NCBI GenBank assembly: GCA_002737665.1
Contig: NSIF01000006.1
Coordinates: forward strand, 1 to 47,777
DNA: 47,777 nucleotides
Source of the DNA: Flavobacteriales bacterium
GTDB lineage: Bacteria; Bacteroidota; Bacteroidia; Palsa-965
Direction: 5' to 3'
The notes beneath the pieces are model-generated. The model saw only the letters and a list, made by a program, of their open reading frames with translations, was not told the DNA's origin and did not search any database. Made by a program: the position numbers and the translations under genes. Shown here piece after piece: positions 5,688 to 47,766 of this stretch (positions are counted from its first letter, which is position 1; each line of letters starts with the position of its first letter).

Positions 5688-7895
5688 ATGAAAACGATAG
5701 CAAGAGAGTCAATAACATTAACTGACGAGTTACAAAAATATTTTGGGTTTAATAAATTCAAAGGTGAGCAAGAGGCGGTAATCAATAGTGTTCTTGAAAA
5801 GAAAGACACTTTTGTAATTATGCCAACTGGGGGTGGAAAGTCGCTTTGTTACCAATTACCAGCATTGTTAAGCAGTGGTGTAGCAATTATTGTTTCACCT
5901 CTAATTGCATTGATGAAAAATCAGGTGGATGCCATTCGTAACCATGGTTCTGAAGATGGGGTAGCACATTTTTTAAATTCTTCACTCAACAAATCAGAGA
6001 TTATTCAAGTAAAAAAAGATATTAAAGATGGCATAACGAAATTGCTTTATGTTTCACCTGAATCTTTGACAAAAGAGGAAAATATAATATTTTTTAAAGA
6101 AATAAAAATTTCATTTTTTGCTATTGATGAAGCACATTGTATTTCTGAGTGGGGGCATGATTTCCGTCCTGAGTATCGTCGACTGCGTGAAATTATTGAA
6201 GCTATTGGTAGCGTTTCTATCATAGCTTTAACAGCAACTGCTACGCCAAAAGTTCAACAAGATATTATCAAAACCTTAGCGATGACTAAGGCAAATGTTT
6301 TTAAAACATCCTTTAATCGTGCTAATCTTTATTATGAGGTAAGGCCTAAGGTGAATGTAGCGATAGAGATTGTGAAGTTCATTAAAAAAAATATTGGTAA
6401 GTCGGGCATCGTATATTGCTTGAGTCGGAAAAAGGTTGAAGAGATTGCTGAGTTTCTTCAGGTAAATGGCATCAAAGCACTTCCATACCATGCAGGACTT
6501 GATGCACAAACTCGTGTAAAAACACAAGATGATTTTTTGATGGAAGAAATTGATGTGATTGTTGCAACAATTGCATTTGGAATGGGAATTGATAAGCCGG
6601 ATGTTCGATTTGTAATTCACCACGATGTTCCTAAATCATTAGAAGGGTATTACCAGGAAACTGGTCGTGCAGGTCGCGATGGAGGAGAAGGGCAATGTTT
6701 ATCTTTCTATGCATTCGCTGATATTCAAAAGTTAGAAAAGTTTATGAAAGGGAAACCTGTTGCCGAAGTGGAGATAGGTAAACAACTTTTGTTAGAAACT
6801 GTTGCCTTTGCTGAGTCTTCTGCCTGTCGTCGTAAAGTGTTATTAAATTATTTCGGCGAAACATATAGACAGGAAAATTGCGGCAGTTGTGATAATTGCA
6901 AAAACCCTAAAGTTAAAATTGATGCTACCGATGATATTTTAATGGTTGTTGATACAGTCATTGATGTAAAAGAAAAATTTAAATCGAAATATATCATTCA
7001 AGTTTTATTGGGCGATGTTACTCCATTGGTTTCATCTTACAAGCATGATAATTTAGAGGTTTTTGGCAAAGGGGATGTAGAAGGGAAAGACGAGGCACAT
7101 TGGAATTCAGTTATACGAACAGCTTTGTTGGAAGGGTTTTTATCTAAAGACATTGACAATTATGGTTTATTAAAGGTTACTAAAGAAGGTAAATCTTTTC
7201 TTGAAAAGCCGCATCCAGTTTTTGTGACACGTGACCATGATTATACAGGTGCCGAAAGTGATGATGATGATGATGTGGATGGTGGTAAAACTGGTGCAGG
7301 GTCCGACCCTGTGCTCTTTACTTTGTTGAAAGATCTTGTAAAGCAAGTTGCTCGCCAAAAAAATCTTCCTCCATATGTAATTTTTCAAGAAACTTCATTG
7401 GATGAAATGGCAATTCAATATCCAATTAACATGGATGAGATGACCCGCATCTCAGGTGTAGGGCCGGGAAAAGCTGCTAAATTTGGAAAGCAATTCATCG
7501 ACCTTATTGCGAAATATGTGGATGAAAATGAAATAGAACGCCCACAGGATTTAGTGGTCAAGTCTGTTATTAATAAATCAGGTTTGAAAGTTCATATCAT
7601 TCAGAGTATTGATCGTAAATTAGATTTGGAAGATGTTGCTGCCGCAAAACGATTGAAATTGGATGATTTGATTTCTGAAATTGAAACTATCGTACTTTCA
7701 GGAACTAAAATAAATATCAGTTATTATATTGACAGTATGATGGATGCTGATAAACAAGAAGAAATTATAGACTATTTCAAAGAGTCAGAATCTGATTCCC
7801 TTGAAGATGCTATTGATGAATTGGGCGAAGAAGATTTTACGCAAGAGGAAATTCGATTGGTACGCATTAAATTTTTAAGTGAGTTTGGTAATTAG
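5688..7895 (+). CDS. recQ: ATP-dependent DNA helicase RecQ
   Basis: [45 protein letters not shown], Zn-binding CRR...CGSCDNC, RQC and HRDC (LPPYVIF) regions. Confidence 0.97.
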
Positions 7896-44381: not shown

Positions 44382-44567
44382 ATAAATGGGTTAGTGTTTA
44401 TTATAATACTGCAAAAATAATGGATTCGTTTTGATTGACAAGGAATTTGGAAAGAGTTATCACCGATAAAACTTGATAAATCCTTTTTTGTCTGCTTATA
44501 AGCCTATTAAACCTAATATTATTGTATAAAAATAGCTAGCAAAATTCTTTAATTTCCACTACTAAGC

Positions 44568-44596
44568 AAAAAAAAGCCCCCCAAAATGGGAGGCTT
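44568..44596 (-). terminator. Rho-independent terminator of the ssb pair
   Basis: Minus strand AAGCCTCCCA-loop-TGGGGGGCTT followed by a U-tract. Confidence 0.8.
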
Positions 44597-44624
44597 ATTA
44601 CTAAAAAAACCATGGCAAGATTTT

Positions 44625-44966
44625 TTAGTCTTTTTTTCCACCCATTAGCAGAATGTCGGAAACAAGAATTTCGGTAGCATTGCATGCTTTCCCGTCTTTG
44701 TCGGTCCAGTTTTTATTCACCAGCTTTCCGGAAATAGCAACTTGTTTTCCTTTTACCATGTATTTTTCGGCAATTGTTGCAAGGCCTTCCCAGGCAGTTG
44801 CTCTGAACCATTGTGTGGTTTCAATTTTTTTGCCTTCTGCATCTGTATGTGTTTCATTACAGGCAATGGAGAAGTTGGCAACTTTCTTTCCGCTGTCGAA
44901 GTTTTTGATTTCAGGATTCTGTCCGAGAATCCCTACTAGTTGTACGTTGTTACGAATCATGTTCAT
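44625..44966 (-). CDS. ssb: Short single-stranded DNA-binding protein, OB fold only (copy 1)
   Basis: NNVQLVGILGQNPE, FSIA, TQWF...AW..LA..AEKY..KGKQVAISGKL...WTDKDG, TEI. No acidic tail. Confidence 0.9.
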   Translation of the reverse strand: MNMIRNNVQLVGILGQNPEIKNFDSGKKVANFSIACNETHTDAEGKKIETTQWFRATAWEGLATIAEKYMVKGKQVAISGKLVNKNWTDKDGKACNATEILVSDILLMGGKKD

Positions 44967-45017
44967 AAATATAAAATTAAGGGTTAATAAAAATTTAAAA
45001 GTAAAATAGGTTTTGTT

Positions 45018-45371
45018 TTATGCTGCTAAAGGCAGCGCTGTTTGTTTGTTTTTGTTTAGTAGAATAAAATGTGTTGCCATAATTTCTTTTTTGGTTTGCT
45101 CTACACCGTTTTTGTCGGTCCATGTGTTTGTTATTAAATGACCGTAGATCATTACACGTTTTCCTTTTTCAAGACAACGCTCTGCCATATCAGCAAGGGT
45201 TCCCCAAGAAACGACCGAATACCATTTTATTTTCTTTTTGTTTGTGCCTGCTTCGGCCTCCAGTGCGGCTGCTGAAAAGCGAGCCATTTTTCGTCCACCG
45301 GTTACTGTTTTGATTGTCGGCTTGGTGCCCAAGTTTACGACCATTTTCACGCTGTTGTTTTGCATAATCAT
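45018..45371 (-). CDS. ssb: Divergent short SSB paralog (copy 2)
   Basis: NSV...NLG..P, ARFS, W..VVSWG.LA..AE..LEKGKRV.IYG.L....WTDKNG, EI. Ends in ALPLAA. Confidence 0.8.
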   Translation of the reverse strand: MIMQNNSVKMVVNLGTKPTIKTVTGGRKMARFSAAALEAEAGTNKKKIKWYSVVSWGTLADMAERCLEKGKRVMIYGHLITNTWTDKNGVEQTKKEIMATHFILLNKNKQTALPLAA

Positions 45372-45510
45372 TAATTAAAATTTAGATAAATAAAAGAATT
45401 GTGTTTAAAATTGTAAAGGGATATTTGCTTATTGTTGCCTATTTATATGGTGCTGTATATTCTTTTGTGTGTAGTTGAATTTCGATAGGTGATTTATTGG
45501 TGCTTGAGTT

Positions 45511-45592
45511 TTGACGGTGCAAAGATGTAGGGCGTTTTTTTGTTTATTCGGTTCATAAACATTTATAGTCGATAGTAAATGTTTGTTGTCGG
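45511..45592 (-). promoter_or_regulatory. Conserved ssb promoter/operator, copy 1
   Basis: -7-like CATCTTTG (45520-45527) plus a 30-bp block TTATAGTCGATAGTAAATGTTTGTTGTCGG (45563-45592) identical to 47184-47213 at the same spacing. Confidence 0.75.
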
Positions 45593-45736
45593 TTAAGATA
45601 TTGTTTTTATTGGGTTTTATAGATTTTTTAGAAAAAAATAAATTCGTATAATTTGAGTAATTTCGCATGTATTAGTATTTTTCTTGTTTATTTCAAGACC
45701 TATTCTGATGTTTAGGGAGTAATTTTTTTCAACAGA

Positions 45737-46504
45737 ATGATTTTAACTTTTTTAGGTACGGGTACTTCACAGGGTGTTCCATTAATTGGATGCCAGTGTT
45801 CGGTTTGTAAATCTGATGATGTTCGTGACAAGCGTACGCGTACCTCTGTGCTAATAGAAATAGATGGAAAAACTATTGTTGTGGATGCAGGTCCCGACTT
45901 TAGGCAGCAATTGCTGCGGGAGGATATTTGCAAATTAGATGCGGTATTACTTACGCATGAACACAAGGATCATCTTGCTGGATTAGACGATGTGCGAGCA
46001 TTTAACTTTTTGCAAAAAAAAGCGATGCCTGTGTACGCTAGTACTAGGGTGCAACAAGCAATTCGAAGAGAATTTGCATATATTTTTGATGCTTCTGCAT
46101 ATCCTGGAATTCCTAAAATTGATTTACGCACAATTGATAACACACCTTTTGTTGCCGAAGGGATTGCTGTAATGCCGATTGAAGTGATGCACCACACTTT
46201 ACCTGTTTTAGGATTTAGGTTTAAAAATGTTACATACATCACCGATGCTAATTATATTTCTCCTTTAGAAAAGGAAAAAATTAAAGGGAGCGATGTGCTT
46301 GTTTTAAATGCGTTGCGAAATGAAAAACACATTTCGCATTATACATTAGAGGAGGCCCTGGAACTCATTGAAGAATTAAAACCTCGTCAGGCCTATCTTC
46401 TTCACATTAGTCACCAATTGGGATTACATGCTGAAGTTGAAAAATTATTACCGCCAAATGTTAGACTTGCTTACGATGGCTTGAAACTTCATATTGAAGA
46501 TTAA
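45737..46504 (+). CDS. MBL-fold metallohydrolase, PhnP-like
   Basis: FLGTGTSQGVP..GCQCSVC, DAGPDFRQQ, THEHKDH, YITD, HISH, HISHQ, AYDG. Confidence 0.92.
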   Translation: MILTFLGTGTSQGVPLIGCQCSVCKSDDVRDKRTRTSVLIEIDGKTIVVDAGPDFRQQLLREDICKLDAVLLTHEHKDHLAGLDDVRAFNFLQKKAMPVYASTRVQQAIRREFAYIFDASAYPGIPKIDLRTIDNTPFVAEGIAVMPIEVMHHTLPVLGFRFKNVTYITDANYISPLEKEKIKGSDVLVLNALRNEKHISHYTLEEALELIEELKPRQAYLLHISHQLGLHAEVEKLLPPNVRLAYDGLKLHIED

Positions 46505-46588
46505 GATTAGAAGAGTAGGGGACTTTCACTTATTCAATATTTTAGTAGTTTTTTTCATACTTCGAATCCTTTCAAGTTTCGTTAAATG

Positions 46589-46610
46589 AAAAAAGCCCCA
46601 TCGCTGAGGC
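46589..46610 (-). terminator. Rho-independent terminator of ssb copy 3
   Basis: Minus strand GCCTCA-GCGA-TGGGGC-TTTTTT. Confidence 0.7.
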
Positions 46611-46632
46611 CATTTCAAAAACAATATGCTAT

Positions 46633-46989
46633 TTAAGCAGCTTTAGCTACTGTTGGCTCATCCATCATTACAATATCGTTTACAACAATTTCTGTTAAGC
46701 TGTGTTTCTTACCGTCTTTGTCTTCCCATGTTCTATTCACAAGGCGTCCTGTAATTCCTACTTTTCTTCCTTTAAATAAATATTGTTCTGCAATGTCGGC
46801 TTGCGTTTCCCATGCAACAAGGTTAAACCAATTGACAGCTGATTTTGTTTCACTCCCTTGTGTTTTGTACGATACATTCGCTAATGTGAAGCGGGCCACT
46901 TTTTTTCCTGTTGAGGTTGATTTTACTTCCGGATTCATTCCTAAATTTCCGATCAACTGCACGTTGTTGCGTTTCATTTCCATTTTCAT
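46633..46989 (-). CDS. ssb: Short SSB paralog (copy 3)
   Basis: NNVQLIGNLGMNPE, ARFTLA, WFNLVAW, KGRKVGITGRL..RTWEDKDG, TEIVV. Ends in VAKAA. Confidence 0.9.
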   Translation of the reverse strand: MKMEMKRNNVQLIGNLGMNPEVKSTSTGKKVARFTLANVSYKTQGSETKSAVNWFNLVAWETQADIAEQYLFKGRKVGITGRLVNRTWEDKDGKKHSLTEIVVNDIVMMDEPTVAKAA

Positions 46990-47131
46990 TCTTGTGATTT
47001 GTTTTAAAAATTAATAATTGTTTTATATATACTCAATTAAATAATGTTCTGTTTTTTTTGATTGCGTTCCGTGCTTTGTTTTTGTTTTTTCATCAGGACG
47101 TCAATTCAAATTATTTCAGGACGATATTTTT

Positions 47132-47213
47132 TTGATGCCGCAAAGGTGTGGTGAAGAAATTTCAATACTCGGCTGCTAAGTAATTATAGTCGATAGTAAA
47201 TGTTTGTTGTCGG
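47132..47213 (-). promoter_or_regulatory. Conserved ssb promoter/operator, copy 2
   Basis: -7-like CACCTTTG (47141-47148) plus the identical 30-bp block at 47184-47213. Aligns without gaps to 45511-45592. Confidence 0.75.
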
Positions 47214-47346
47214 ATATATGATTGAAATACAATATATTAAACTAAATTTTTTATTTAGCACAAATTTGAAGTTTGGCATAATTCATCTAATTATATTATC
47301 TTTAATACTGAAAAACTATTTAATATTGTTTCAATTATTTATTAAA

Positions 47347-47766
47347 ATGTACAAATTGAAAAAAATCACAACCTTTTTTTTAATAGTACTTCCTGTATTT
47401 TGGGGTTGTAATAATGATGTTAATGATAGCGTAGTGCCTGCTGATGGAGTTCGTGCAGTTTTGTTCGTGCAGCACCATGGAATTCCCATTCCCAATGCAA
47501 GTGTTTTTTTAAAAATTGGAACTTTAGTTTTTCCGGGAACAGATACAACACTTTATGATTCGCGTTTTGTTACCGACTTTAATGGGCAGTATATCGTCAG
47601 TGGTTTACCAAATGGCCAACAAGCGTATACTTTTTATGCCAAAGGAATTGATCCAGGTTGGGATTCTACAAACACAACTCCAGTATGGGGGTATCAATTT
47701 TTAATGACCGACACAAGAATAGGTGAGGTATTGGATTATGCCGTTTCGATTCCTGTAAGTGAATAA
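47347..47766 (+). CDS. Hypothetical lipoprotein, beta-sandwich-like
   Basis: The ATG at 47347 gives a signal peptide MYKLKK...FWG-C. The ORF-track extension from 47200 lies in regulatory AT-rich DNA. Confidence 0.7.
   Translation: MYKLKKITTFFLIVLPVFWGCNNDVNDSVVPADGVRAVLFVQHHGIPIPNASVFLKIGTLVFPGTDTTLYDSRFVTDFNGQYIVSGLPNGQQAYTFYAKGIDPGWDSTNTTPVWGYQFLMTDTRIGEVLDYAVSIPVSE

Follow-up and report, generated by a model that had tools for sequence, protein, structure and literature searches.

A putative activator-dependent promoter with helically phased direct repeats upstream of short ssb genes in Bacteroidota

Introduction

Why are two groups of genes for short single-stranded DNA-binding proteins (SSB) in one bacterium preceded by non-coding DNA that is more alike than the genes themselves, and what is the role of this DNA? 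The question is raised by contig NSIF01000006.1 of a Flavobacteriales bacterium (assembly GCA_002737665.1), which in its entire length of 47,777 nucleotides (nt) is the window of this study (contig C56; the assembly comprises 1.65 Mb and is 67% complete). On the minus strand of the window, the ssb2-ssb1 unit and ssb3 each possess an upstream block of 82 nt. A first-pass annotation made from the letters of the window had interpreted this block as a selected, helically phased site for an activator or an alternative sigma factor. Gene regulation in Bacteroidota is poorly charted beyond polysaccharide use, and it is not known why these bacteria possess additional short SSBs that lack the protein-recruiting tail.

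The block is a genuine cis-regulatory module under selection, namely a promoter of the sigma-A type without a -33 box but with phased units upstream. Rather than a local duplication, it represents a type of ssb promoter spread over the class and, within the order, a feature of a multi-gene regulon. Judging by the sequence, it is moderately likely that each copy is the activator-dependent promoter of a short-ssb unit, directed along the minus strand, and belongs to an undescribed single-strand-DNA regulon.

Results

A repeat search revealed one sole long direct repeat in the window (45509-45595 versus 47130-47216; 87 nt, 74% identity). Within this repeat, the 82-nt block (45511-45592 versus 47132-47213) aligns without gaps and is identical at 60/82 positions. 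Counted by eye along the block, identity amounts to 15/20, 3/10, 12/22 and 30/30, which reproduces the three figures reported in the first-pass annotation (15/20, 3/10, 30/30). The 30-mer at the end (45563-45592 and 47184-47213) is 100% identical; at up to three mismatches it has two matches in the window compared to 0.00 expected from 100 shuffles, and no further copy with up to seven substitutions besides these two was detected in the whole 1.65-Mb assembly. The claim that the block is better conserved than the paralogous genes also held, since the repeat reaches 74%, compared to 59% in the coding regions, 54% in the leaders and 57% in the 100 nt adjoining the block. Global alignment of ssb2 and ssb3 gave the 59% nucleotide identity and 35% amino-acid identity. 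TCG cores are located at 45548, 45569 and 45589 in copy 1 and at 47169, 47190 and 47210 in copy 2, and a dyad is present in copy 1 (AAACATTTA at 45557-45565, TAAATGTTT at 45576-45584), both as annotated before.

Two covariance models were used for searches, R1, a sequence-only model of the 90-nt block, and R2, a broader model built from 81 sites. The unpublished genome G013 is included in the alignments A1 and A2, in both models, in the tallies for genus, family and order and in the consensus of 121 sites given below. Copy 1 of the promoter module (45511-45595, minus strand), upstream of the ssb2-ssb1 unit, is matched by R1 with an E value of 2.5e-22 and by R2 with 6.6e-19; copy 2 (47132-47216, minus strand), upstream of ssb3, is matched by R1 with 1.5e-22. 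On the minus strand, each copy shows in succession the distal CCGACAACAAACATTTAC, TATCGACTATAA and the proximal CCGAATAA (in copy 2 CCGAGTAT), which is followed by 20 nt and CTTTG. The middle and distal units cover 45552-45595 in copy 1, with CG cores at 45570/71 and 45590/91, and 47173-47216 in copy 2, and include the 30-mer in both cases. The proximal core of copy 1 (45544-45551) is situated at about -36 to -29, exactly 20 nt from TTTG, while that of copy 2 (47165-47172) is a degenerate form of CCGAATAA lying in register in alignment A2.

The -7 box of copy 1 (CATCTTTG, 45520-45527) is the sole nAnnTTTG on the minus strand of its intergenic region; that of copy 2 (CACCTTTG, 47141-47148) was found by a box search of the other one. 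Compared with the sigma-A consensus TAnnTTTG, both boxes match at 7/8 positions. In Bacteroidota sigma-A promoters, a -33 TTTG is expected about 19-21 nt upstream of the -7 box. At this place it is absent from both copies and CCGAATAA or CCGAGTAT is found instead, as would be expected of a promoter needing help. According to a study on Flavobacterium psychrophilum (PMC9723704), which gives the TAnnTTTG consensus, the -7 box of this species spans -12 to -5. On this basis, and with transcription beginning about 5 nt past the box in Bacteroidota sigma-A promoters, starts are predicted near 45515 (copy 1) and 47136 (copy 2). The CG cores then come to lie near -35, -56 and -76, all on the same side of the helix.

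In gene sense, 121 unique sites yield the consensus ATAncCGnttACAAACgtTTAcaanCGanTAtAAacgnTTAanAaCCGanTaa, about 17 free bases, cAncTTTGCanCgTCgA. It contains three direct units of about 20.5 nt with the unit consensus CGnttACAAACgtTTAcaan / CGanTAtAAacgnTTAanAaC / CGanTaa. Most information resides in three CG dinucleotides, which are 20 and 21 nt apart, and in the AA and TTA words between them; the CG dinucleotides are invariant and the CCGAnTAA core reaches 1.7-2.0 bits. Like activator-type repeats, the CG cores stand 21 and 20 nt apart and adjoin the -35 region. The non-canonical -7 box noticed in the window turned out to be conserved across ssb sites as CAyCTTTG, and so is the segment CCACAyCTTTGCAyCGTC around the start of the ssb promoters, whereas genes other than ssb that bear the same upstream units possess canonical TAnnTTTG boxes. 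The suggestion that one core occupies the -33 place was confirmed as well, since the spacer to TTTG is fixed at 20 nt in both copies, in the consensus and in 79 loci retrieved by a pattern with this fixed spacing. The proposed helical phasing became evident from the length variation of the element. Among 81 aligned sites, 22 internal insertions were observed, 20 of 10 nt, one of 20 nt and one of 3 nt, so that 21/22 measure 10 or 20 nt; therefore, extra units come in whole helical turns and the register to the -7 box is kept. Internal deletions (1-4 nt) occur in 12 sequences. Short forms have only two cores (CCGACAACAAACGTTTGnTACCGACTAA) at an unchanged distance from the box.

At core position 3 (45565 and 47186), the ssb2-type and the ssb3-type copy carry the same base in 7/7 genomes in which both were read, A/A in four and G/G in three of them. 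This matched state could reflect co-evolution with one reader or gene conversion.

Conservation of the block was followed outward from the genus. The 30-mer (up to three mismatches) is present in 8/24 other genomes of the genus and in 0/16 genomes from other families, the control with the reversed pattern giving 0. Model R1 at E<=0.01 detected 1-15 sites each in 33/35 genomes of the family and R2 found the same 33/35 genomes; the order is made up of those 35 family genomes, and over both models the number of sites per genome ranges from 1 to 16. Bacteroidia genomes with a completeness of 90% or more were then sampled; 55/151 genomes and 42/100 genera yielded a site at E<=1e-4, nearly always ahead of a short ssb gene, and among the best loci from other families of the class 17/18 showed, by eye, the start of an SSB-like open reading frame (ORF) downstream. 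The first-pass annotation had recommended a scan upstream of short-ssb orthologs. Among 65 loci of SSB3 homologues, the motif was detected in 34/42 titled Bacteroidota, all 34 in ssb sense (e.g. in Niastella vici, Bizionia arctica, Xanthomarina gelatinilytica and Gelidibacter maritimus), and in 0/23 titled otherwise. The exact pattern AACCGAMTAA, 20 free bases and TTTGCANCGTC occurs at 79 loci of the species collection, nearly all of them from Bacteroidota, including eight named Flavobacterium species, Polaribacter, Mesoflavibacter, Lacihabitans, Arcticibacter and a Spirosomataceae genome. At 76/79 of these loci an SSB-like ORF follows within 300 nt, and ACAAACG units, which lie outside the search pattern, were present in all 14 loci inspected. 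The promoter type marks short ssb genes across Flavobacteriales, Cytophagales, Sphingobacteriales, Chitinophagales and Bacteroidales, and the selection on the block that was deduced from two copies is reflected by its conservation ahead of ssb beyond the species, genus and order studied here.

The element goes with ssb. In 11/11 loci of the same genus the gene on the CTTTG side encodes an SSB, while the neighbour on the opposite side varies (membrane protein in eight, MBL hydrolase in two, lipoprotein-like ORF in one), which argues against an association with the divergent genes. Moreover, ssb3-type and ssb2-type loci both exist in relatives, hence the two copies are old paralogues and not a recent duplication. 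Of the short-ssb loci of Flavobacterium, 49/80 carry the motif, all in sense.

To determine which other genes share this layout, 94 family sites were fetched, 87 of which have a sense gene within 450 nt downstream, and the products were assigned to families by Pfam and NCBIfam. SSB is most frequent (34 loci), followed by IS200-like Y1 transposases and RAYT-like proteins (eight loci each), four-helix-bundle proteins (23S_rRNA_IVP; seven), RecQ (four), DUF2851 (three), a PolB-type 3'-5' exonuclease and a YhcG/DUF1016 nuclease (two each). RecJ-like DHH, PIF1-like helicase, ComEC, KilA-N, ORF6N and RraB-like proteins are represented by one locus each. In two other families, units were found ahead of comM (one locus), DUF2851 (one locus) and a UvrD-like helicase. 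Going by these assignments, the theme of the motif-bearing genes is single-strand-DNA handling. Neither the SOS genes recA and uvrA nor the competence genes dprA, comF and pilin genes were among the sites examined. The orientation is strongly biased. At E<=1e-3, a sense gene lies downstream of 66/78 sites, and for co-directional gene pairs 22 sites point in the right direction versus one clearly in the wrong one; 7/8 antisense exceptions are ssb loci at which a crude ORF picker had chosen the antisense frame. Several motif-bearing genes are leaderless, with the ATG 4 nt past TTTGC.

Symmetric arrays (CCGTTTATAAACGTTTATAAACGTTTATAAACGG) were encountered 14-18 times per genome in two other Bacteroidia lineages (G101 and G150). 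They are flanked on both sides by a -7-like box (TAAATTG or TAAATTTG), which is directly followed by a GGGG...CCCC hairpin and sometimes a T-run. By their layout, these arrays resemble promoters that act in both directions and give rise to very short, structured RNAs.

Four metatranscriptome runs were inspected, as contigs, for the region 44400-47400. Since contigs give neither starts nor strands, no conclusion on start sites can be drawn from these RNA libraries. On the ssb3 side the contigs stop at 47026, 47059, 47084 and 47119, and no run covers 47120-47189. In run X17, one contig (length 4,304 nt, depth 29.7) begins at 47190 inside the core of copy 2, crosses the lipoprotein-like gene and extends about 3.7 kb past the end of the contig studied here. 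Published expression data are available for F. psychrophilum. According to PMC9723704, the 336-nt gene of this species annotated as 'probable SSB' is low in exponential growth and induced in stationary phase (log fold change 2.61), lake water (3.41) and blood (1.85) and also on agar, while its canonical ssb is flat under the same conditions. We infer that this expression is linked to the motif, the species itself lying outside the 80 Flavobacterium loci.

Discussion

The most economical explanation of the module is an activator. A sequence-specific DNA-binding protein conserved across Bacteroidia would occupy the phased units side by side, and the protein at -35 would recruit RNA polymerase to an otherwise weak promoter. 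In response to a signal, it would turn on a set of genes for single-strand-DNA functions, of which the short SSBs without a tail are always members; in this order the set would include recQ, recJ-like, PolB-type exonuclease, DUF2851, comEC and IS200/RAYT-like genes.

A repressor ranks second. We consider it unlikely, but not negligibly so, that a repressor or dual regulator coats the region from -29 upstream and, in the absence of a signal, prevents expression of short ssb and of the remaining members. These members resemble genes whose expression is usually low (transposase-like genes, comEC, extra SSBs), and the low expression of the F. psychrophilum gene in exponential growth, described in the study cited above, would agree with it. 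Furthermore, AAACGTTT is palindromic, and the arrays of the two other lineages are fully symmetric, as operators of dimeric repressors often are; the conserved segment around the ssb start could even be a second operator. On the other hand, the best-conserved units lie at -40 to -80 and thus outside the core promoter, a repressed promoter has no need of the weakness caused by a missing -33 box, and strict phasing to the -7 box together with a fixed orientation toward the gene is typical of activators. It is distinctly improbable that there is no dedicated factor at all and that phased AAAC/GTTT tracts bend the DNA, forming an UP-like element for RNA polymerase. The period of about 10 nt of the A/T tracts and the insertion quantum of 10 nt would suit intrinsic curvature, but the invariant CG dinucleotides and the information content of the CCGAnTAA core exceed its needs. 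Moreover, the motif is confined to one functional gene set and the strongly expressed housekeeping ssb does not have it.

Marginally less probable again is a promoter for an alternative sigma factor with CCGAnTAA as -35 element. This option of the first-pass annotation has lost ground. It would explain why a conserved word replaces the -33 TTTG at a fixed distance and why the -7 box at ssb starts with C instead of T; however, the box is of the sigma-A type, other members exhibit canonical TAnnTTTG boxes, and the core word is repeated two or more times at a greater distance upstream, a feature not needed by a sigma factor. No ECF-type -10 elements of the CGT type (PMC9723704) were seen. That the block is transcribed as an RNA element (a leader, or a small RNA from either strand) appears very improbable. 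RNA-library contigs do cross copy 1, one contig begins inside copy 2, and a 12-bp hairpin is possible on the plus strand of copy 1, yet this hairpin is not kept in copy 2. Folding z-scores (-1.66, -0.22, -1.09 and +0.30) were not significant, a compensatory change was found in 0/20 predicted pairs, no Rfam match at E<=1 lies within the block, and insertions in helical-turn quanta do not fit an RNA either. The least probable explanation regards the identity of the 30-mer as a by-product of gene conversion, or of a RAYT-linked mobile repeat of the REP/MITE type, without regulatory function. The motif is indeed found at RAYT-like and IS200-like genes, and the matched state of core position 3 in seven genomes is explicable by conversion. 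Against this, there are just two copies in this assembly, single-copy repair genes carry the motif too, it always stands 5' of the gene in fixed register with the -7 box, and at 16 RAYT/IS200-like loci no second copy was detected on the far side of the gene within about 1.5 kb.

Several observations weigh against an activator-dependent promoter of a wide regulon. A repressor polymerising on the units would be just as compatible with the conservation. The start-site table of F. psychrophilum (PMC9723704) has no entry for THC0290_0087 (the short ssb) or for 113120-113239. RNA-library contigs of low depth (2.7-9.5) cross copy 1 (45438-45697); thus, transcription through the motif is possible, although DNA carry-over would look alike. 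In this assembly, the two ssb sites alone carry the motif. A scan at E<=10 yielded nothing further except one overlap and one match with an E value of 8.7, and the RecQ gene of the assembly (5688-7892, plus strand, of the window) is without the motif, while recQ of four relatives has it. Outside this order, most genomes contain just one or two sites, and therefore the wide regulon may be lineage-specific. The multi-copy IS200/RAYT-like and four-helix-bundle genes may have carried the promoter along while multiplying; many of the non-ssb sites precede such genes and are not independent evidence. Finally, the motif was not found at 31/80 ssb loci of Flavobacterium. In 11 of these loci that were read, another coding frame mostly ends just upstream, so that the gene looks like the second one of a tandem ssb pair such as ssb2-ssb1.

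By analogy, the proposed mechanism would resemble that of OmpR/PhoB-type or LytTR-type activators at tandem direct repeats. Activation of the OmpR/PhoB family is exemplified by the OmpR sites F1-F3 at ompF and by pho boxes replacing the -35 element. What these promoters have in common with the module described here are head-to-tail units with a period of about 10/20 bp, placed from about -100 to -40 on one helix face, the proximal unit abutting or replacing the -35 of a weak promoter. What separates them is the -33/-7 Bacteroidota promoter, the unrelated sequence of the units and their number (two to about six in whole-turn steps); a response regulator gene adjoining the sites was not seen at the loci examined. 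LytTR regulators (AgrA, ComE, VirR) bind 9-bp direct repeats with a 12-bp spacer, and the streptococcal class controls the competence cascade including a second SSB. Their sites share the 21-bp period of core words just upstream of -35. By contrast, three or more cores with intervening 10-nt sub-repeats are present here and no LytTR gene was found adjoining the sites. A competence-specific second SSB is also known from Bacillus (ComK boxes, SsbB) and Haemophilus (the CRP-S regulon with ssb, comM and rec2). Here, too, an extra short SSB has a dedicated promoter type that is shared with comM and comEC-type genes. However, dprA, comF, pilus genes and recA were missing from the sites examined, and competence is unproven for these organisms.

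Two other types of DNA elements were rejected. Plasmid-type iterons would call for tandem repeats of about 20 bp beside a rep gene and an origin; no rep gene is nearby, and the repeats stand in fixed register before promoters of many chromosomal genes. The LacI/CcpA operator consensus TGWAANCGNTNWCA is a single 14-bp palindrome with a central CG; it does not occur in the two intergenic regions of the window. In relatives, words resembling TGTAAACGTTTACA exist but form part of 10-nt tandem arrays.

The block had also been stated not to be a LexA box, and indeed GGA-N5-TCC and CTAA-N5-TTAG, the Bacteroidota LexA boxes given in PMC8565304, are absent from both strands of 45372-45736 and 46990-47346. 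The resemblance lies in the SOS network, which in some species includes ssb and recQ, but LexA boxes are short repressor-bound palindromes. This LexA paper was the only match in a literature search for Bacteroidota ssb/recQ regulons with direct repeats. A description of the motif was not found in a search that excluded most subscription journals; among the matches listed for competence nothing concerned Bacteroidota, and for DUF2851 nothing useful was obtained.

One candidate for the regulator, judged from gene neighbourhood and co-occurrence, is a protein of about 120 amino acids with an N-terminal Zn ribbon (CxxC...KKFCSDxCR) that is conserved across Bacteroidia; the motif separates its gene from the divergent ssb. 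Of the 151 sampled genomes of the class, 53 contain both motif and gene, two the motif only, 40 the gene only and 56 neither; these counts, which include genome G122, come from related genomes and do not amount to a statistical test. In 23 genomes, fewer than 120 nt separate the gene from the best site, and in most loci inspected the distance between its start codon and the distal unit is 21-92 nt. At such a short distance the gene's own promoter must overlap the units, as in divergently transcribed autoregulators. Pfam and NCBIfam yielded only sub-threshold matches (DUF2116 with 21.4 bits against a cut-off of 26.8, and YacG, respectively), and in the Atlas the protein belongs to unnamed Bacteroidota clusters. 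For its AlphaFold model (pLDDT 88.9), Foldseek gave no match at E<=0.001. With VIA-align the best Z score was 4.3 and many rows for residues 45-117 were winged-helix DNA-binding domains, but all of these rows have Z scores below 5, which possibly indicate only a common arrangement. In the assembly studied here, the gene (contig C60:25212-25571, minus strand) is located behind rpsA and has no motif upstream. The Zn-ribbon protein could just as well be an SSB partner that is regulated together with it. In genome G086, the site next to the Zn-ribbon gene precedes not ssb but an ORF of 130 amino acids beginning with METMLTENQISNKVIGLAIDAH, which may, we presume, be of the GxxExxY type.

It is conceivable, if rather improbable, that the Zn-ribbon protein is a new kind of DNA-binding protein and the master regulator of an undescribed, class-wide response comprising tail-less SSBs, comEC, comM, recQ, recJ, the exonuclease and DUF2851. 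Bound to the units in the region shared by the two genes, it would then activate ssb and at the same time repress its own gene, and the response would amount to a competence-like programme or one of starvation or single-stranded DNA stress.

Irrespective of the factor, the motif is a handle to fish the regulator and to define the regulon in Flavobacterium aquatile, F. dankookense, Niastella vici or Polaribacter, and it can be used to decide whether the response concerns DNA uptake, repair or starvation. Within this order, it also places the domesticated-looking IS200/RAYT-like genes and the four-helix-bundle genes under common control with ssb and thereby offers a clue to the function of these widespread genes.

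Additional features of the window

All three short ssb genes of the window are on the minus strand. ssb2 (45018-45371) encodes an SSB of 117 amino acids (Pfam SSB, E value 4.2e-19) and is followed 51 nt downstream by ssb1 (44625-44966; 113 amino acids, 6.2e-27). The two genes are bridged by RNA-library contigs and probably belong to one transcription unit. ssb3 (46633-46989) encodes 118 amino acids (5.3e-29); like the ssb2 product, its SSB is without an acidic C-terminal tip. The fourth SSB of the assembly is the housekeeping long form with a DDLPF tail (contig C51:~6380-6868, minus strand). Its gene has an ordinary TATCTTTG box, and neither upstream units nor the motif were found there.

The predicted leader of ssb2 comprises about 143 nt (45372-45514, minus strand) and is poorly conserved (54% identity to the ssb3 leader). 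The predicted leader of ssb3 comprises about 146 nt (46990-47135, minus strand). Among relatives, the length of the ssb leader ranges from 56 to 270 nt. Tandem runs of the short word CCCGAAAC occur in the ssb leaders of several relatives and are absent from this assembly.

A hairpin search detected a terminator-like hairpin after ssb3 (46594-46611, minus strand), and another one follows ssb1 (44574-44596, minus strand), close to the ends of RNA-library contigs at 44560 and 44569. The latter hairpin is overlapped by three sub-threshold Rfam matches at 44526-44633 (minus strand; Yfr10, Phe_leader and rimP), which most probably arose by chance from the combination of a hairpin and a T-run.

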